Source: an uncultured Thermococci archaeon (lineage in GTDB: Archaea; Methanobacteriota_B; Thermococci; Methanofastidiosales; B48-G16). Taken from it: a DNA stretch of 64,000 nt. Below are positions 7,255-48,432 of the stretch, piece after piece. Each line of letters opens with the position of its first letter. The stretch's first letter is position 1. The notes below the pieces were generated by a model. That model worked only from the letters and a program-made list of their open reading frames with translations, made no database searches and was not told where the DNA came from. Both the position numbers and the translations under genes were made by a program. The stretch lies in assembly GCA_964595645.1 (NCBI GenBank), contig CAZQQT010000007.1, positions 79,123 through 143,122 on the forward strand. The letters are read 5' to 3'.

Positions 7255-10200
7255 CACAGGATTGGACTGAGTACCACCTGACGGAGAAACCAGCATTAGA
7301 TCTTCTAGAAGAGCTGGGGTATACAGTCTACGATATCAATGAGACCTTTGAACGACCGGAACGAGACTTGTTGCGAGAGGTGCTGTTACTGAACAACGTA
7401 CGGTCGGCGATTCAACGAATTAACCCATGGATCTCAGAGAATAACCTCAATAAAGCGGTGAACATGATCCGTCCCACAAGAATCCGGGCCGCTGGAATGA
7501 TAGAAGCCAACGAGATCACCTACACCCGACTGGTCAAGTACATCTCAGTTCCTCAGGATCTGGGAAAAGGAAAAAAGAATCAGACGGTAAAGTACATTGA
7601 TTTTGAGCATCCTGAAAACAACGAGTTCTTGGCACTGAACCAGTACAAGGTAAAAGGACACGAGAAAATAAAACCGGACATCGTGATCTTTGTTAACGGC
7701 ATTCCCATCGGCGTCATCGAGTGCAAAAACGAGACTACCTGCGATGATCCAGAGGACGATGCCATCGATCAGTTGCGACGGTATCAGAACATTCGGTACG
7801 AGAATGAGAATGAAGGTGCAGAGCAACTGTTTTATCCTAACCAAATACTTGTAGCAGCCTGGCGGGATTCTGCCTCCTCCTGTGCCATTGGTGCACCAGC
7901 CCGACAGTTCAAAGCGTGGAAGGATCCCTATCCACACACAAAAGAAGAGATTCGATCCGTAGTCGGAAGAAACGTTACCCTCCAAGATATACTCCTCTTC
8001 TCCCTCTTCAAAAAAGATCGTCTGCTAGATCTCATTCAGAACTTCATCGTGTTTGAACGCGCAGGAAACAAGCTCATCAAAAAACTGGCGCGGTACCAGC
8101 AGTATCGAGCAGTAACCAAAGCTGTCGAACGGATAAAGAACGCAGACACACTGATTGATCGGAGTGGTACTGTCTGGCACACTCAGGGATCGGGGAAGTC
8201 TCTCTCCATGCTCTTTTTGGCCCTCAAACTGCGACGAATGGAAGGACTGGGAAATCCCACACTTCTCGTAGTAACAGACAGAATCGATCTCGACGACCAG
8301 ATCACCGGTACCTTCGAACGGTGCGGATTTCCAAATCCAATCCAAGCGCAAGATACAGACAATCTCAAAGAGTTGCTCAGAAGAAACGTCGGAAAAACGA
8401 TTATGACGACGGTGCACAAATTCCAGGAACGTGTGAAGGAGAAATACCCTGTTCTCACTGAAGATACGAATGTGTTTGTAATGGCCGACGAGGCACACAG
8501 GACACAGTACAAAGACTTGGCGGCAAATATGCGAAGAGCCTTGCCCAACGCCTGCTACTTGGGATTCACGGGGACGCCTATCGACAAAGAAGAGAGAAGC
8601 ACACTGCGGACCTTCGGATCCTATATCGACACCTACACCATCGATGAGTCCGTTGACGATGGAATGACGCTCAATATCCTTTACGAGGGAAGAATCCCTG
8701 AGTTACGAGTTGAAGGACGCGATCTCGACGATTTATTCGACAGAATATTCAAAAACTACTCCAACGAAGAGAAGAAAAAAATAAAAGAGAAGTACGCAAC
8801 TGAACGAGACATTGCTGAAGCAAAATCCAGAATTGAACGGATATGTCTTGATATCATCGATCATTACGAATCAAAAATATATCCCCTCAAAGGACAGATA
8901 GTAACAGTGAGCAGAGAAGCAGCCGCCAGATACAAGGAAGCAATGGACAGGTTTAACGGACCTGAGTCTGCTGTGATCATCAGCAGTGATCAGAACGATC
9001 CGCCGCTTCTCAAGAAGTACCATACATCTGCTGGTGAACGAAAGCATCTTATTGAAACATTTAAAGATCCGGAAAGTAATCTCTGCCTCCTCATTGTCTG
9101 TGATATGCTGCTGACTGGATTTGACGCACCAGTAGAGCAGGTAATGTATTTAGACAAGCCGCTCAAAGAACATAATCTCCTGCAAGCGATTGCACGAGTG
9201 AACAGACGGTTTGAAGAGAAAAATTATGGTCTTATTGTGGACTACTATGGCGTGTTTGATTACCTCCAAGAAGCATTGGCCGTCTTCAATAAAAAGGATA
9301 TAGAAAACGCTGTCACCCCCATCAAGGATGAAAAACCGAGGCTGGAGAGAACGTATAGACAGGTTATGCAGTTTTTTGAAGGAGTGGATCTTGATGACCT
9401 CGATGAGTGCATCCTAACCTTTAAAGACGAAGACAAACGACTGAAGTTCAAACGTGCTTTTAAAGCCTTTGCAAAGAGCATGGATATCGTTATGCCCGAT
9501 CCAATCGCGGATCCGTACCGTGAGGATCTCAAAACACTGGGGAAAATTTACAAAGCGGTGAGAAACCACTACCGTGACAGCTCTTTGGACATAAAGGGTG
9601 TTGGTGGGAAGGTAAAGCGGCTAATAGATGAACATATTCGCGCAACCGACATCAAAATACTCAATGAACCGGTCTCTATTCTTGACAAAGAGGAGTTCGA
9701 TCGTACTGTAGAAGAGCATGAAAATATTGAGACTAAAGCTAGTGAGATGGAACACGCAATCCGAAGTGAGATTAGTGTGAAAATGGAAGAGAACCCTGTC
9801 TTTTACCAATCGCTGAAAGAACGGTTAGAGGAAATTATCGAAAAGAGAGTCCAGGGAAGATTCACCTTTACCAAACAGTTAGAAGAAATGAGAGAGATAA
9901 TCCACGAAATTCGAGATGTGAGGACAAAAGCCGAGAAGCTAGGATTGAATGAGCGAGAGTTTGCTCTCTACGAACTGCTCCTCGACGAAAGAGAACATGA
10001 ACGGGTGGAGACAGTGAGTGAGAGTACGGGAGCCTACCATCCTGGTGGTCCTGAACTGCATATTAATAAAAAGGTTAGAGATTTATCCAAACAATTAATG
10101 GACGACCTTGAAGACATGAGAGTCGTGGATTGGAAGGAAAAGAAAATGATTCTAAAAGAAATGAGAAAAGTGATCAAACTCACGTTGAGTGAGTACAAAG

Positions 10201-40944: not shown

Positions 40945-42210
40945 TCATTTCTCCATTCGTCGTTTGAGCGATCGTGCATGCCCATATAACCCTTCCGTCT
41001 CTGCAAGCATCCTCGCTATACTACCTATCTTTTCAATTCCCGTTTTCGTCACGCGGAGAGTTGTCTGAAGCTTAACGAAATCTATGGCACTCAAGCCGCC
41101 GGTATACCGCGCACCGGTATTAGTAGGGAGTGTATGGTTGAGTCCGCTGCTGTAATCACCGAGAGCTTCGGCAGCGAAGGATCCGACAAAGAGCGATCCG
41201 TAGTTTCGTAGGCATGGGATGTACTGGTCGGGATCGCGTAGCTGAAGTTCCAGATGTTCAGGTGCCCTTTTGTTCGCAATTTTAACTGCTTCGTCTATTC
41301 CCTCGGTAAGAATCATCGCCCCGTGCGCTATCGCCTTCTCAGCAGTGGATCGTGTGGGGAGCCCCTCGAGCTGGTGTTGAAGCTCCGTTGCAACCCGCTC
41401 CGCCAAGGTTACCGATGGTGTAACTAAGAGTGGTAATGCATTGTCATCGTGTTCCGCTTGCGCAAGCAAATCGGCTGCAACGATCGCCGGATCCGCTGTC
41501 TCATCGGCAATGATCATGAGCTCGGTGGGGCCTGCGAGGAAATCGATGCCTACAGCACCAAGCACCTGTTTTTTTGCCGCTGTGACGTACGTATTTCCAG
41601 GTCCCACGATTTTATCCACCTTTTTGATAGATTCTGTTCCGTAGGCCATAGCCCCTATCGCCTGGACACCTCCCACTTTATACAGTTCGTCCACGCCGAC
41701 ACGGGCTGCTGCGGTGAGAAGTGCTGGATGGATGGTACCCTCATAGGTTGGGGGTGAGCAGACAGCGATCTCCTTCACTCCTGCAACAACAGCTGGAATG
41801 CAGCACATAAGCAGTGTAGAGAGAAGCGGTGCCTGCCCGCCGGGAACGTAGACACCCACACGATCTATCGGGATAATTTGCTGGCCGGCGAAGACCCCAG
41901 GGGCGATCTCCATTTCAAATGCGGTGAGCTGGGAGAACTGACGTTCGGCGAACTGTGTGATGTTCCTCGCAGCTGCATCGATTGCGTCCGCCACAGACGT
42001 ATCTGTCACGTGAACTGCCTCTCTGAACTCGTGACCCTCTACTCGAAGTTTTTCCAAGACCACATGGTCAAACTCGAGGGTATAGCGCTTCACTGCCCTA
42101 TCTCCTTTCTCTCGTACCTCTTGGAGTATTGTTCTCACTGTATCCAATTCCTCAGGCTCCTTGTACGTAAAGAACTCATCCGTGAGTTCATCTGCAGTAA
42201 CAATCCTCAT
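40945..42210 (-). CDS. hisD: Histidinol dehydrogenase
   Basis: GVYVPGG, KIVGPGN.YV, AGPTE, LAQAEHD, APEHLE, GDY..G.NHTLPT. Confidence 0.97.
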   Translation of the reverse strand: MRIVTADELTDEFFTYKEPEELDTVRTILQEVREKGDRAVKRYTLEFDHVVLEKLRVEGHEFREAVHVTDTSVADAIDAAARNITQFAERQFSQLTAFEMEIAPGVFAGQQIIPIDRVGVYVPGGQAPLLSTLLMCCIPAVVAGVKEIAVCSPPTYEGTIHPALLTAAARVGVDELYKVGGVQAIGAMAYGTESIKKVDKIVGPGNTYVTAAKKQVLGAVGIDFLAGPTELMIIADETADPAIVAADLLAQAEHDDNALPLLVTPSVTLAERVATELQHQLEGLPTRSTAEKAIAHGAMILTEGIDEAVKIANKRAPEHLELQLRDPDQYIPCLRNYGSLFVGSFAAEALGDYSSGLNHTLPTNTGARYTGGLSAIDFVKLQTTLRVTKTGIEKIGSIARMLAETEGLYGHARSLKRRMEK

Positions 42211-43460
42211 TCTTTTCTCCTCCGTGCAAGCTCATAAAATACCTCATCAAGGGGTATCCCTCGTTTTGCCAGCAAAACAGTAGAAAAGTATAGGAGATCG
42301 GCAATTTCCCATATCACCCCTTCGTCTGTTTCTGCCTCTACTACCTCCTGCGCTTCCTCCAGAATCTTCTCTCTGAGGAGAGGATCAGTTAGTGTGGCAG
42401 TATACGATCCCTGCTGTGGGCTGTTCAGCCTGTCCTGGACTATCTCGTAGAGCTCATACAACTCGTAGTCTCTCTCGCCGAAACAGGAGTACGATCCCGT
42501 ATGGCAGGCGACACCTTCCTGCGCTACAGTAGCAAGAATCGTGTCGCCATCGCAGTCTGCCCTCATCCGTATAAGCTCCTGCGTATTCCCCGAGGTTTCT
42601 CCTTTCTGCCACAGACTATCCCGGGATCGAGAGAAGTACCACATCTTTTCCGTCTCAAACGCTTTTCGAAGCGACTCTTTACTGCTGTACGCGAGCATGA
42701 GCACCTGTCCTGTGGTATCCTGTGTGATTGTTGGAATGAGGTCACTATCCCATCTCAGCGAAGCAATGAAGGCTTCTGTAAGATCTATTTTTCCTGTATA
42801 GAGTGCCATGCCGAGTTGAATATCCACTCCCATCCGTGAGAGCTCCCGTATCTCCTTCATCGTGCTCACTCCTCCAGCAACGGTGATCGGGTTCTCTGTG
42901 GTGTGTACCAGCGCTTCCACTACGTCCATGTCAGTTCCCTTCATTGTGCCTTCACGTTCCACGCAGGTAAAGAGGAACTCGGCAGCGTATGTCTCCAGAT
43001 GCGAGACTGTCTCAAGGAGATCGAGTCCTGTAGTGTGTCGCCATGCGTCGGTCACGATCTCTCTGTGGAGAGCATCAATGGCAATGATCACTCTGTCTCT
43101 TCCCACCGCCGAGACCAACGCTTCAAGAAAACCGTCGTTGATCCTGCCGCTATCAAAGGCTTTCGATCCGACGATGATCTTTTTCGCGCCGAGAGAAATG
43201 AGCTCCCGTGCATGTTCCGGTGTCCGTACTCCACCACCCACACGACAGTCCCCAATTCTCAGGATCTTTTTTACTGTCTCAGCATTATCGCCTTTGTTCA
43301 TGGCGGCATCGAGATCGATGACTGCGATCTCACCGTATCTATCAAACTCTCTGGCAAGAGAAAACACATCCTCACGTTCAAGCATCTTTTTCCTTCCCTG
43401 TTGTAACTGCACCGCCTTTCCCTCTTTGAGGTCGATGGAAGGGATGATCATCGTACGCAC
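42207..43460 (-). CDS. hisAIE: HisA-HisI-HisE fusion protein
   Basis: IIPSIDL..GKAV / VGGG.R / AGG (HisA barrel); SRSR..LW.KGETSGN, DCDGD, ACHTG (HisI); SYT, KILEEA.EV, EIADLLY (HisE). Confidence 0.92.
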   Translation of the reverse strand: MRTMIIPSIDLKEGKAVQLQQGRKKMLEREDVFSLAREFDRYGEIAVIDLDAAMNKGDNAETVKKILRIGDCRVGGGVRTPEHARELISLGAKKIIVGSKAFDSGRINDGFLEALVSAVGRDRVIIAIDALHREIVTDAWRHTTGLDLLETVSHLETYAAEFLFTCVEREGTMKGTDMDVVEALVHTTENPITVAGGVSTMKEIRELSRMGVDIQLGMALYTGKIDLTEAFIASLRWDSDLIPTITQDTTGQVLMLAYSSKESLRKAFETEKMWYFSRSRDSLWQKGETSGNTQELIRMRADCDGDTILATVAQEGVACHTGSYSCFGERDYELYELYEIVQDRLNSPQQGSYTATLTDPLLREKILEEAQEVVEAETDEGVIWEIADLLYFSTVLLAKRGIPLDEVFYELARRRKE

Positions 43461-44200
43461 ACTCCTCTTTTCTTTAGATACGTCTTGATCTCCTGTACTG
43501 TGTACTCACCGTCGTGAAGAAGGGATGCCAGGAGAACGGCATCTGTCTTTCCGTTTTCCACTACCTCGTATATTTGTTCGAGGGTTCCAGCCCCACCTGA
43601 TGCAATAACTGGGATGTTCACGCTCTCAGAGACTGTCCTCGTGAGCTCAAGATCGTAGCCTTGCTGCGTTCCGTCTCTATCCATAGAGTTGAGCAGGATC
43701 TCGCCTGCACCAAGCGCTTCGCCTTTTTTTGCCCAGGAAATAACATCAACCCCCGAATTATTCCGTCCACCATGGGTATAGGCGTACCATCGGGTCCCTC
43801 GTTTTTTCGCGTCGACAGAGAGTACGATACATTGGGATCCAAAAGTCTGTGCCCCGCGAGAGAGAAGATCGGGGTTGTGGAGGGCGGAAGTGCATAGTGC
43901 AACTTTATCAGCGCCTGCATTCAGAACAGCACGCATATCCTCAACAGTTCGCAATCCTCCACCAACTGTGAGCGGAATGAAGACCTCTCTCGACACGCCC
44001 CTCACTACATCGATAAGGATCTCTCTACTTTTATAGGAGGCTCCAATATCGAGAAAGATGAGTTCATCGGCTCCTTGATCATTGTACCGTCTCGCAAATT
44101 CCATTGGATCGCCTACATCGCGGAGTTCCTTAAATCTTACACCCTTTCTCACTCTTCCCTCGTCTACATCGAGACAGGGAATAATCCGTGTTGTTAACAT
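43448..44200 (-). CDS. hisF: Imidazole glycerol phosphate synthase cyclase subunit
   Basis: RIIPCLDV, GADEL.FLDI, GAGEILLNSMDRDGT, IASGGAG. Confidence 0.98.
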   Translation of the reverse strand: MLTTRIIPCLDVDEGRVRKGVRFKELRDVGDPMEFARRYNDQGADELIFLDIGASYKSREILIDVVRGVSREVFIPLTVGGGLRTVEDMRAVLNAGADKVALCTSALHNPDLLSRGAQTFGSQCIVLSVDAKKRGTRWYAYTHGGRNNSGVDVISWAKKGEALGAGEILLNSMDRDGTQQGYDLELTRTVSESVNIPVIASGGAGTLEQIYEVVENGKTDAVLLASLLHDGEYTVQEIKTYLKKRGVCVR

Positions 44201-44790
44201 TGTCTCACCCAGTTTTTCAGGAGGTTAAGCCCAATTTTTCCGCTCTTTTCCGGGTGAAACTGCACAGCGTAGATCTTACCCTTTCCAATCACAGAAGGGT
44301 AGGAGACACCATACTCGGTGGTGCCGATCACAATGGACTCCTCTGTACGAACGTAGTACCCGTGCAAAAAGTAAAAAAAGGAACTATCATCGATTCCTTC
44401 CATTAACGGCGAGTTCCGTTTTATAGAAACGTTGTTCCACCCTATCTGTGGTACTTTATACCTTTCAAACTCAACGACATTGCCGCGGAAAATGCCAAAC
44501 CCCCTCGTATCCTCCGCCTCTTCACTTGTTTCAAAAAGGAGCTGCATGCCGAGGCAGATCCCTAAAAACGGCCTATCCGCGCGTATCCAGTCATCAATAT
44601 GCTCATACATGCCTGAAAACACTAGCCGGAGAATCGCAGAACGGAATGCACCGACACCTGGAAGAATCAGGCCATCTATCCCTCTAAAATCTTTTTTCGA
44701 TTCGACAACTTTGTATTGTGTTCCCAAGTATTCTAGCGCTTTTTTTACTGAAAGGAGATTTCCAGCTCCATAATCTACTATTCCAATCAT
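44194..44790 (-). CDS. hisH: Imidazole glycerol phosphate synthase glutaminase subunit
   Basis: DYGAGN, LPGVG, GICLGMQ, QFHPEKS. Confidence 0.98.
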   Translation of the reverse strand: MIGIVDYGAGNLLSVKKALEYLGTQYKVVESKKDFRGIDGLILPGVGAFRSAILRLVFSGMYEHIDDWIRADRPFLGICLGMQLLFETSEEAEDTRGFGIFRGNVVEFERYKVPQIGWNNVSIKRNSPLMEGIDDSSFFYFLHGYYVRTEESIVIGTTEYGVSYPSVIGKGKIYAVQFHPEKSGKIGLNLLKNWVRQC

Positions 44791-45374
44791 ACTATCCCCT
44801 TTGTGCTTGGTATAGCGTTTTTTCGCCGTTTTTCAATAGTGCACGCCCTCTTCAACGAATGTCCGAAGGCTTTAAAGATTGCCTCGATCTTGTGGTGATC
44901 GGAACGGCCGTAATACACGTGCACATGAAGTGTGGCCCCCAACGATCCAACAATCCCCTGAAAAAAATCGTTTAACAACTCAGTAGAGAGATCACCAACT
45001 CTCTTGTTTTCAAAGGTTGCATGCATGGTGAGATGGGTTCTGTTGGATATATCGACGGCAGTCATTGCCAACGCGTCATCCATGGGGCAGACAAAGAACC
45101 CCGTCCTACAAATGCCTCTTTTATCACGCAATGCTTTCCTAAAAGCTTCGCCCAGTACAATTCCTGTATCTTCGACAGTGTGGTGCTGATCCACCGCTGT
45201 ATCACCGTGTACTTCCATTTCCAGATCAAAGACTCCATGCTTCGCAAAGGTCTCCAACATGTGCGTTAAAAACCCTATAGGTGTTTTTACAGTGCTCTCT
45301 CCCGTTCCATCAAGGTTGAGCTCTATTCGTATCTGTGTCTCCTTTGTGTTTCTCTCAACAACAGCAGTTCTCAT
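44787..45374 (-). CDS. hisB: Imidazoleglycerol-phosphate dehydratase
   Basis: RNTKET, DQHHTVED, DHHKIEAIFK, PSTKG. Confidence 0.98.
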   Translation of the reverse strand: MRTAVVERNTKETQIRIELNLDGTGESTVKTPIGFLTHMLETFAKHGVFDLEMEVHGDTAVDQHHTVEDTGIVLGEAFRKALRDKRGICRTGFFVCPMDDALAMTAVDISNRTHLTMHATFENKRVGDLSTELLNDFFQGIVGSLGATLHVHVYYGRSDHHKIEAIFKAFGHSLKRACTIEKRRKNAIPSTKGIV

Positions 45375-46438
45375 ATTGACACATCTCCCATTCCTTTTTC
45401 CTCTCGGGGTAGAATATCTCTCAGTACGCTAAGAAACGCGGTATTTTCGCTGCGGGTACCGACAGTTACTCGAAGATATCCGTCCATTACTGGCAATGAG
45501 CTGAGATCCTTCACCAGTATTCCCCTTTTCTCTAAGGCGTTTTTGATACACTCGGCATCCTGTCCCACATTGACCAAGATGAAATTTGTAGCCGTAGTAC
45601 GCGTGTTAACGCCCAGTTTTCTCAATGCACTGGAAAGAAACGCCTTTTCCTTCTGTATATGGTTGACCATGCGACCTATATAGGCAGTATCGGCAAGTGC
45701 TGCTCTCCCTGCAGCAACAGCTGCAGCATTAACAGAAAAAGGAGAAACCACCTTTCGAAGCTCGTCAATGATCTCTTCACTCGCTACGGCCATACCCAGC
45801 CGCAGACCGGCCAGCCCAAATGCCTTGGAAAAGCTGTGGACTGTAATGAGGTTTTCGAACTCCTCGACGAGATCGACGTACGACTCACCGGCAAAGTGGT
45901 AGTAGGTTTCATCCAGCACGACCAGTGAGTTGCTCATTTCCTCCATGATGTCAACGAACTCATCTTTGTCGATGCACGTGCCGGTGGGGCTTCCTGGATT
46001 CACAACAACCACAAGCTTCCCTGACTGTGATACGAGGCGTTTCGTTGGAAAGGAAAGATCCTCATTGTACATCACAGGTACCACCTGTGCTCCTCGTATC
46101 TGTGCCAAGATTTCGTACATGGGAAATGTCGGAGAGGGGAGTATCGCCCTATCTCCCTTTCCAATGTACGCGTTCATCGCCGCTTGAATCGCTCCATTGG
46201 CACCATTGGTGAGAAGAATATTTTCAGGGGGTACTGCTAAATACGTTGAAATTTCCTCAACTAACTGAGAATAATCCGGGTATAAGCTTATATCATTGGA
46301 ATCCAGAGCGTGAAGAGCTTCTAGTGCCTTCGATGAGCAGCCTCTAGTATTCTCGTTGAGGTTCAGCCGTATAGCAGATTTTCGTAATTTAGGTGGTAGA
46401 TACGGTGAAACCTCAGCCAGTTCCTCACGAGCTCTCAC
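45371..46438 (-). CDS. hisC: Histidinol-phosphate aminotransferase
   Basis: LNLNEN, SFSKAFGLAGLRLG, LRVTVG; operon context. Confidence 0.95.
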   Translation of the reverse strand: MRAREELAEVSPYLPPKLRKSAIRLNLNENTRGCSSKALEALHALDSNDISLYPDYSQLVEEISTYLAVPPENILLTNGANGAIQAAMNAYIGKGDRAILPSPTFPMYEILAQIRGAQVVPVMYNEDLSFPTKRLVSQSGKLVVVVNPGSPTGTCIDKDEFVDIMEEMSNSLVVLDETYYHFAGESYVDLVEEFENLITVHSFSKAFGLAGLRLGMAVASEEIIDELRKVVSPFSVNAAAVAAGRAALADTAYIGRMVNHIQKEKAFLSSALRKLGVNTRTTATNFILVNVGQDAECIKNALEKRGILVKDLSSLPVMDGYLRVTVGTRSENTAFLSVLRDILPREEKGMGDVSI

Positions 46439-47289
46439 AGGACCACCTTCCGCAACTCGTACTCCAGAATGTCGGTCGCACCGAGGTTTTTGAGTTGTGG
46501 TATCAGTTTTGCTGTTTCCGTCCGTTTCACCGCAATTTTTACCGCGTACCCTTTCTCCCCATAGAGTGGTGCCATAGTTGGAGATCGCATGCAGGGGAGA
46601 CTCTGAATGATTTCATCGGCTCTCTCTTGAGGAACGTTCATCTCAAGCATGACCCGTTCCCGGGCGTCAAGTACCGCCTCAAACAGCGTCGTTAATTCGT
46701 CGATCTTCTCTCGTTTCCAGGGATCCTCCAACGCCTTTCTACTTCCGATAAATCGAGTGGATGAGTTCAAAAGTGTGCTGACAACGTGGAGGTTGTGCTT
46801 CTCGAGTGTCCGTCCAGTGGAGGTGTTATCAACGATCATATCAGCATCGTCAGGAGGAAAAACCTCTGTTGCACCGTGGGTCCGTAAAAATACGTAGTCG
46901 TATCCTTCTTTCTTAAGAAAATTCGTGGTGATTCTCTCGTACTCAGACGCAACGACGATCCTTCTCTCATGGAGATTTTCGTGCAGAAGATCCTCCGGTA
47001 CCGCCGCCACAATTTGTACGGGATCGAACCCGAGATCCAGTACCTCCACCACATCCGCACCTGTTTCAAGTACCCAATCATGTCCAGTAACCCCGACATC
47101 GTGCGATCCCAGCTCGAGAAGTGTTGGGATATTCTGCGGTTTCATTATTTTCATTTCAAGCTCTGTGTCACTGACAGTAGGTCTGTACGTTCGCTCCTTT
47201 ACCTCTATCCGTATGCCTGCCTCGTTCAGAAGGCCGATCACATTCCCATGAATCCTACCCTTCGGTATAACAATTCGTAATGTTGTCAC
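46435..47289 (-). CDS. hisG: ATP phosphoribosyltransferase (long form)
   Basis: PKGRI, G.D...E, HGATE, D...TGRTL, C-terminal regulatory domain with SPT. Confidence 0.97.
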   Translation of the reverse strand: MTTLRIVIPKGRIHGNVIGLLNEAGIRIEVKERTYRPTVSDTELEMKIMKPQNIPTLLELGSHDVGVTGHDWVLETGADVVEVLDLGFDPVQIVAAVPEDLLHENLHERRIVVASEYERITTNFLKKEGYDYVFLRTHGATEVFPPDDADMIVDNTSTGRTLEKHNLHVVSTLLNSSTRFIGSRKALEDPWKREKIDELTTLFEAVLDARERVMLEMNVPQERADEIIQSLPCMRSPTMAPLYGEKGYAVKIAVKRTETAKLIPQLKNLGATDILEYELRKVVL

Positions 47290-47295
47290 AAAAGC

Positions 47296-47318
47296 ACCTC
47301 CCCTCTTAAAAAGGAGAT
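47296..47318 (-). promoter_or_regulatory. Hairpin sequestering the hisG Shine-Dalgarno
   Basis: mRNA AUCUCCUUU-UUAAG-AGGGGAGGU: 9-bp stem including three G-U pairs, whose 3' arm contains the SD GGAGGU; the GUG start follows. Confidence 0.7.
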
Positions 47319-47321
47319 TAG

Positions 47322-47399
47322 TTATCGATGGTGATGCAGTCCCGACACTACCTTAGAAATACCAATGTTCGTAGGTGTACATTGTTGGTCAGGATACAT
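47322..47399 (-). CDS. Putative his operon leader peptide MYPDQQCTPTNIGISKVVSGLHHHR
   Basis: 25-codon ORF with tandem His codons CAT CAC CAT at 47336-47328, between the TATA box and hisG. Confidence 0.75.
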   Translation of the reverse strand: MYPDQQCTPTNIGISKVVSGLHHHR

Positions 47400-47421
47400 C
47401 ACGCCTCTTTCTCTTTGTCCC

Positions 47422-47437
47422 TTTATAAATGTTTTCC
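47422..47437 (-). promoter_or_regulatory. Archaeal BRE/TATA promoter of the his operon
   Basis: Minus strand reads GGAAAAC-A-TTTATAAA, with the TATA ending about 23 nt before the leader ATG. Confidence 0.7.
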
Positions 47438-47673
47438 CAGCATAAAGTTTTAAAGGATGTACCTATTCTCATTCGCATGCTCCGTTGAAGAAAAAAGAGA
47501 GCGTTTTTTCTACATTTTTATTACTTTAATAAACTATTTCTGAATTAGAACGCGACGAAGTATTTTTCAGTGCTTTTGAGGCATATAAGAGAAAATTGGA
47601 AAAAACACAACAGCTTCTGAGAATGAGAAAATCTTTTAAAGACATATATGCAGAAGAGAATAAAGAGAGTACT

Positions 47674-48432
47674 ATGAAAATCTTTATTATAGCAGCTGCA
47701 CTGACTCTTACTGTTGTTGCGATCTTTGTGTATACTCAGGAGGAACCACCCATGGAAGAGAAAAACATGACTCATAAAATAGAAATGCCTCCCATCGACC
47801 TCGATACGCCAGCTGAGACGAAAACGGCAACCTTCGCCCTCGGCTGCTTTTGGGGTGCTGAGTCCACCTTTGGCTGCGTTCCGGGTGTGATCAGAACTCG
47901 TGTCGGATATGCGGGAGGCACCACCGAGAATCCAACCTATCGTAATATCGACGATCATATTGAAACCGTCCAGATCGAGTACGATCCCACGATGGTATCC
48001 TACGAAGAACTCCTCGAGATCTTCTGGAACGCGCATACCCCCACGTCACAACCGTGGAAACGGCAGTACATGTCTGTAATATTCACTCATACAAACGAGC
48101 AAAGAGAACTGGCTTCTTCAACACGAAATCGCGAGGCGAAAATCCAGAGAGAGATCGCGACAGAAATCATAGCCTTCTCGAAATTTTATCCTGCTGAGGA
48201 CTACCACCAAAAGTACCATCTCCAGCAGTATACGAAGCTTATGAACGAGTTTACAACTGTCTACCCAAATTCTAAGGATTTTATCAACTCTACCGCCGTA
48301 ACACGAACGAATGGATATGTGGGTGGGTGTGGCACCCTGGCAGATCTCCAAGAAGAGATAGACCAGCTCGGACTCTCAAAAGAGGGGAAGAAGTATCTGT
48401 TAGAGATTGTGAGTGGAAGAAAATACCGTTAA
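47674..48432 (+). CDS. msrA: Peptide methionine sulfoxide reductase A with N-terminal signal anchor
   Basis: GCFWG, TRVGYAGG, FYPAEDYHQKY. Confidence 0.95.
   Translation: MKIFIIAAALTLTVVAIFVYTQEEPPMEEKNMTHKIEMPPIDLDTPAETKTATFALGCFWGAESTFGCVPGVIRTRVGYAGGTTENPTYRNIDDHIETVQIEYDPTMVSYEELLEIFWNAHTPTSQPWKRQYMSVIFTHTNEQRELASSTRNREAKIQREIATEIIAFSKFYPAEDYHQKYHLQQYTKLMNEFTTVYPNSKDFINSTAVTRTNGYVGGCGTLADLQEEIDQLGLSKEGKKYLLEIVSGRKYR

Follow-up and report, generated by a model that had tools for sequence, protein, structure and literature searches.

A candidate histidine-sensing leader peptide upstream of the his operon in an uncultured archaeon of the class Thermococci, with similar leaders in other archaea

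Introduction

Can an archaeon read the supply of an amino acid through a ribosome that stalls on a leader peptide? The question is raised by a short open reading frame that ends in three histidine codons just before hisG in an uncultured archaeon, whose order includes Methanofastidiosum and whose class is shared with Thermococcus and Pyrococcus. Amino-acid control by stalling ribosomes is known from bacteria. According to a paper of 2014, direct support for archaeal attenuators was absent, and a literature search, with most subscription journals outside its scope, found no later report of ribosome-read attenuation in archaea. Here, we analyzed a window of 64,000 nucleotides (contig CAZQQT010000007.1, positions 79,123 to 143,122) together with related loci. 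A preliminary description of the window had proposed that a ribosome stalled on the histidine codons covers one arm of a hairpin and thereby exposes the Shine-Dalgarno (SD) sequence of hisG.

Results and Discussion

Organization of the his locus

The gene order hisG-C-B-H-F-(A+IE)-D represents a complete his operon according to the NCBIfam models (Table 1). The start codon of hisG is the GTG at 47289, and the gap between the leader stop and hisG is only 32 nt. The fusion of hisA and hisIE encodes one protein of 417 aa (42207-43460). The hisC gene (45371-46438) encodes 355 aa, and its counterparts in the sister species (L111:3852-5525) and at L171:3853-5553 encode 557-566 aa; this suggests that the shorter protein has lost a fused C-terminal domain, possibly a phosphatase. 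The divergent msrA gene on the plus strand (47596-48432) encodes a protein whose N-terminus includes a hydrophobic stretch and whose Cys active site is normal.

Re-reading of the locus base for base confirmed the elements named in the preliminary description: the TATA box, the ATG, the 25-codon frame ending in L-H-H-H-R with no His outside this run, and the stem that starts 9 nt past the last His codon and carries the hisG SD in its 3' arm. The leader ATG (47399) is located 22 nt downstream of the TATA box, and a GTG at 47402 lies in the same frame. Because the spacing between the TATA box and the transcription start site (TSS) is 29 nt at TK0242 of T. kodakarensis, transcription here is expected to start near 47400, and the leader ORF is probably leaderless or nearly so, as had been proposed. 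No SD precedes the leader ATG in the sister species. The leaders of Thermococcaceae are SD-led, unlike the predicted leaderless frame of the host.

Table 1. Positions of the leader region, the his operon and related upstream frames (window positions, except where another locus is named).
Feature	Position	Strand	Basis
BRE-like purine run and TATA box	47422..47437	-	purine-rich run 5' of the box; putative function
TATA box TTTATAAA	47429-47422	-	sequence; same place in sister species; putative promoter
Predicted transcription start, at leader GTG/ATG	47398..47402	-	predicted from T. kodakarensis TK0242 spacing
Leader ORF, 25 codons (26 counted from GTG 47402), end L-H-H-H-R-stop	47322..47399	-	sequence
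Predicted 15-bp helix P1: 47402-47388 (5' end, start codon) with 47346-47331 (Gly-Leu-His-His codons)	47331..47402	-	
Control codons CAT CAC CAT	47328..47336	-	sequence; invariant in sister species
Leader stop TAA	47324-47322	-	sequence
SD hairpin, with short U tract 3' of hairpin	47296..47318	-	fold; kept in sister species
hisG Shine-Dalgarno GGAGGTG	47295..47301	-	sequence; invariant in sister species
hisG, long form, first gene of operon	46435..47289	-	TIGR00070 and TIGR03455, scores above cut-off
Remaining operon: hisC, hisB, hisH, hisF, fused hisA-hisIE, hisD	40945..46438	-	NCBIfam
Trp leader before trpE-G-D-C-F-B-A	G000:C2 about 141070-141200 (L284); also L287, L285	-	sequence
Lys/Arg-rich upstream frames	L274:17417-17690; L277:5550-5860, 8490-8830; L280:7900-8040		sequence

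Genomic background, transcription and translation of the frame

The background set comprised 610 genes of the host genome with free upstream DNA. Three consecutive His codons among the last six codons of an ATG-started short upstream frame were found before a single gene (1/610), namely hisG; two consecutive His codons occurred in such frames before 8 of the 610 genes. Thus, a short ORF enriched in cognate codons before its pathway operon exceeds chance at hisG, and the His-ending leader is not due to chance. An Rfam scan of the locus matched no relevant family.

Exact gene coordinates identified three of the compared genomes as T. kodakarensis (G063), P. furiosus (G046) and T. onnurineus (G065). 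Published primary TSSs are located 10 nt before the leader ATG in T. kodakarensis (TSS 203450, leader ATG 203460; PMC4247193) and 19 nt before it in T. onnurineus (PMC5316973), which places the leader ORF inside the primary transcript in two Thermococcus species. A start upstream of the leader ATG, on which the original proposal depended, therefore exists in both; for the host genome, the position and the inclusion of the ORF are predicted.

The codon usage of the leaders is strongly biased. Overall, the leader His codons comprise 162 CAU and 9 CAC, and in Thermococcaceae the leaders have 117 CAT and 5 CAC versus 15 and 61, respectively, in the adjacent his genes. Since the sole tRNA-His of the host genome has the anticodon GUG, CAU is wobble-read, which would raise the sensitivity to tRNA shortage. 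Pairing of CAU with AUG was rejected as a cause of the CAT bias, being true in the host's own genus only.

The scarcity of wobble variation, with codons nearly all CAT, and the conservation of the flanking bases in Thermococcaceae could also be read as signs that a regulatory protein binds CATCATCAT and its flanks, as DNA or as RNA, the frame being incidental. However, the start signals are frame-specific: all 47 His frames of Thermococcaceae can be traced back to an ATG without a stop, and 43 of them are SD-led, and the other frames gave 0 and 2. In addition, an in-frame stop follows at most four codons away, and the Trp and Ile/Leu/Val leaders described below share the layout of the His leaders and not the motif. 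A protein-binding site is thus very improbable.

Two routes by which the leader ribosome might continue into the operon were also rejected. Read-through of the stop into hisZ would encounter in-frame stops inside the spacers, and slippage at starved His codons would reach hisG through the -1 frame, which is open in the host and closed in the sister species. The distance from the stop to hisZ in Thermococcaceae is a multiple of three in 37/47 cases, and the stops in the spacers exclude a fusion. On the 3' side of the leader stop, at L191-L242, a TTCT always lies in the frame of the leader, even past a UGA stop (CTN TTC).

Recurrence of His leaders across archaea

Comparison of orthologous loci revealed a conserved His-run frame upstream of related hisG genes and his operons, as the stalling proposal required. 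In the one sister species of the same genus, the length of the leader, the H-H-H-R end, the SD hairpin and the position of the TATA box are kept, and the middle of the leader drifts; the hairpin, for which conservation had also been expected, has a changed loop. In Methanofastidiosum, a leader of 23-24 codons ending in 2-3 His is present at 9/9 hisG-hisD loci (one of the nine leaders is interrupted by a contig end) and absent at 15/15 stand-alone hisG loci. Several genomes of this group carry two unrelated hisG types, with the leader only at the hisG-hisD type.

A His-ending leader precedes 47 of the 48 his operons of Thermococcaceae, in which hisZ is the first gene, and in the exception the three His remain and the stop next to them is lost. 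Such a leader is also present in at least five small-genome archaea; as related genomes give non-independent counts, a fair count is about four lineages. On the HisG tree, the leaders stand before three separate clades. The leader sequences are unlike one another between lineages: the frame and the control codons are conserved and the rest drifts.

The HisG of the window is 54-70% identical to proteins from many bacteria. Several bacteria with close HisG homologs have classical His leaders and terminators, unrelated in sequence to the archaeal leader. Acquisition of the leader from bacteria was therefore rejected, given the unrelated terminator leaders of these neighbors and a HisG tree that shows no donor direction. 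As a separate observation, hisG is preceded by unannotated classical His leaders in bacteria that include Spirochaetota and Calditrichota (L042, L071, L110, L116, L118, L123, L150, L167, L175); many of these leaders are followed by terminator-like hairpins, and Aminicenantes and similar bacteria have a leader of the H-H-H-V-F-H-G-R type.

Leaders for other amino acids

Frames with a corresponding layout precede other biosynthetic operons. Before trpE, frames of 21-22 codons ending in W-R-F or W-R-L, with diverged sequences, were found in three genomes (the host, the sister species and a member of another family), and they begin about 30 nt past a TATA box. A helix between the start-codon region and the segment just after the stop was predicted in two of these genomes, and the third has matching complementary segments. 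Among the ilvB operons of Thermococcaceae, 6/7 have upstream frames ending in runs of Ile/Leu/Val codons. The frames at L292-L297 (P. furiosus PF0935 and relatives) have 28-50 codons, lie 40-83 nt before ilvB, and encode Ile mostly with ATT. Weak Lys/Arg-rich short frames were also noticed before the lysX, homocitrate synthase and aspartokinase genes of T. kodakarensis and P. furiosus.

Judged from their sequences, the cognate-codon leaders for His, Trp and Ile/Leu/Val appear to form a class. The comparisons make it highly likely that histidine is sensed by ribosome stalling on the leader His codons.

Folding of the leader and the output of the sensor

The SD hairpin was predicted at -9.9 kcal/mol, which is modest against shuffled sequences (z -1.65; z -2.64 in the sister species). 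In free RNA the hisG SD is sequestered, with a probability of being unpaired of 0.03-0.05, and its opening cost of 10.6 kcal/mol ranks among the highest 2.5% in a set of 520 SD-led genes whose median is 3.7; the folds were modeled at 37-65 C, and the organisms may grow hotter.

Ribosomes of H. volcanii protect 15-16 nt counted from the first P-site base (PMC7261190). With a mask of 15-nt reach placed at any of the three His codons, the SD of both species had an unpaired probability of only 0.04-0.06, and the opening cost was about 10 kcal/mol. At the His codons this cost fell to 7-9 kcal/mol with an 18-nt reach and 4-5 with a 21-nt reach. Thus, the folds gave no support to the proposed release of the hisG SD by a ribosome that stalls on the His codons and covers the 5' arm: masking of the footprint leaves the hairpin closed in both species, the SD stays shut at a reach of 12-15 nt, and 18-21 nt would be needed. 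The stall geometry falls 3-6 bases short because the stem starts at the edge of the footprint.

In both species, the opening cost drops to 3-4 kcal/mol exactly when the leader stop codon is in the A site, where the unpaired probability of the SD reaches 0.75-0.81. This would fit translational coupling, in which the leader mainly delivers ribosomes, the SD hairpin is melted by each ribosome arriving at the stop, and any His control operates through another route such as RNA stability or occlusion; a published proposal for bacteria invokes reinitiation at leaders (PMC4833913). However, coupling alone would lower his expression under histidine starvation, which is the wrong sign, and it leaves the pathway-matched terminal codons and the CAT bias unexplained. 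Moreover, spacers between leader and gene elsewhere measure up to 80-140 nt. We consider this explanation improbable.

The effect of a ribosome at the last His codon varies between lineages. The opening cost changes from 9.2 to 7.3 kcal/mol in Methanofastidiosum (5.5 with an 18-nt reach), a drop of 2-4 kcal/mol, and from 10.3 to 5.2 kcal/mol in P. furiosus, and the mean for Thermococcaceae barely shifts (7.6 to 7.0). In two Thermococcus subgroups, the covered segment folds directly onto the SD. No SD switch was found for the Trp leaders in constrained folds.

Other structural elements suggested in the preliminary description found no support. The U tracts are not conserved, since a U5 lies in the stem here and only a U3 in the sister species. 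As anti-SD partners, the His codons paired with the SD no better than shuffled sequences did, and the full-leader fold pairs them with the 5' end. Nor was there an advantage for anti-SD pairing of the covered segment in Thermococcaceae: the cognate value (-9.4 kcal/mol) compared with -9.8 for shuffled, -10.0 for upstream and -9.5 for non-cognate sequences, and 3724/5000 permutations were equally good. A search of the locus for an intrinsic-terminator attenuator gave one hairpin with a U4 tail only, and no antiterminator in constrained folds. The helix P1 (MFE -23.4, z -1.9) is genus-specific, and the sister species keeps it with two one-sided changes. In these models, P1 could induce a pause or restrict sensing to a single event.

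The main rival to SD gating keeps the same sensor and assigns its output to premature termination or cleavage by FttA/aCPSF1: a stalled ribosome would cover a U/C-rich loading site past the leader, or let a hairpin hide it. FttA is encoded in the genomes of the host, the sister species, Methanofastidiosum and T. kodakarensis; it binds U-rich RNA at most 36 nt from the 3' end, and a proposal holds that it excludes the ribosome (PMC11616081). In 47/47 Thermococcaceae, a TTCT inside or edging the footprint is present at +6, +9 or +12 relative to the final His codon. Equilibrium SD switching largely fails in the folds, and P1, once folded, would hide the start of the leader, which suggests that the decision is taken once, during transcription. 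However, the U tract is inconsistent (the longest T run is 1-5 in the spacers of Thermococcaceae, 5 in the host and 3 in its sister), the T content of the spacers is only 0.33-0.36, and the TTCT is absent at the corresponding place in the host. In addition, a stalled ribosome uncouples translation, which should favor FttA. We regard FttA gating as rather unlikely, and give the same odds to its wider form, in which the class Thermococci, with T. kodakarensis and P. furiosus among its members, would use His, Trp and Ile/Leu/Val leader sensors whose stalled ribosomes gate FttA/aCPSF1.

Proposed mechanism

Overall, a His-sensing leader peptide with SD gating by ribosome occupancy is the best explanation, to which we assign a probability of roughly 45%; for the output, SD gating is the best guess. 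A ribosome would load at the 5' end of the RNA and translate the short frame. When charged tRNA-His is scarce, it would dwell on the terminal His codons, and otherwise it would terminate and depart. The distance between the control codons and the stop is only 0-3 codons, so the ribosome probably signals by its occupancy and not by its position. A pyrimidine-rich arm would otherwise pair with purine tracts including the SD of the first gene; the dwelling ribosome would shield or fray this arm at its own 3' edge, and translation of hisG would start. Given the dwelling, such an occupancy-based release has about even odds, and the case is weak for this very locus. Speculatively, untranslated operon RNA could be removed by FttA-type polarity, resulting in operon-wide control.

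Comparison with known systems

For the mycobacterial poly-Cys attenuators such as Ms5788A, mutation showed that the structure which sequesters the SD is blocked when the ribosome stalls (Canestrari et al., bioRxiv 10.1101/834739). As in these leaderless sORFs, a cognate-codon ORF, here predicted to be leaderless, heads a biosynthetic operon without a terminator, the following gene has its SD within a structure, and several pathway loci share the layout. The differences are the archaeal host, the use of His, Trp and Ile/Leu/Val instead of Cys, and a system recognized from sequence alone; moreover, the predicted footprint ends at the base of the stem and leaves the sequestering helix intact. Disruption of the helix by the footprint is seen in part in Methanofastidiosum and P. 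furiosus and not on average in Thermococcaceae. The leader would thus work like the mycobacterial attenuators, but in the models it fails their footprint test here.

With the enterobacterial hisL attenuator, which we take to be the Rfam family His_leader (RF00514), the locus shares a run of His codons in a short ORF before hisG, and P1 includes the control codons and may resemble the pause hairpin. However, hisL has seven His and the present leader three, C-terminal ones; there is no Rfam match, no antiterminator, and no strong terminator with a long U run in the 32 nt to hisG. The leader is outside the hisL family. In ermCL and cat, a hairpin that contains the next SD likewise lies behind a short ORF, whereas their trigger is a drug-peptide arrest and not tRNA shortage; in addition, the present peptide varies between lineages and the predicted footprint does not overlap the stem.

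In tnaC and mgtL, Rho-dependent attenuation is gated by ribosome occupancy near the leader stop. Such occupancy could similarly gate a termination factor here, with FttA as the archaeal analog, although Rho is absent and the pyrimidine element is short. Xie and Reeve reportedly described in 2005 a trp leader of Methanothermobacter thermautotrophicus with a two-codon ORF, control being mainly exerted by the TrpY repressor; that leader is also a case of a tiny cognate-codon ORF before an archaeal amino-acid operon.

Conclusion

In conclusion, the leader of an uncultured archaeon is tied to what appears to be the same device in the genetically tractable Thermococcales T. kodakarensis and P. furiosus, for which genetic tools, mapped start sites and a system with purified FttA are available. 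Ribosome-read attenuation in archaea and regulatory coupling to FttA are therefore now testable with a small set of point mutations in one identified locus. If true, a family of FttA-gated leaders would be a form of archaeal attenuation without a described example.
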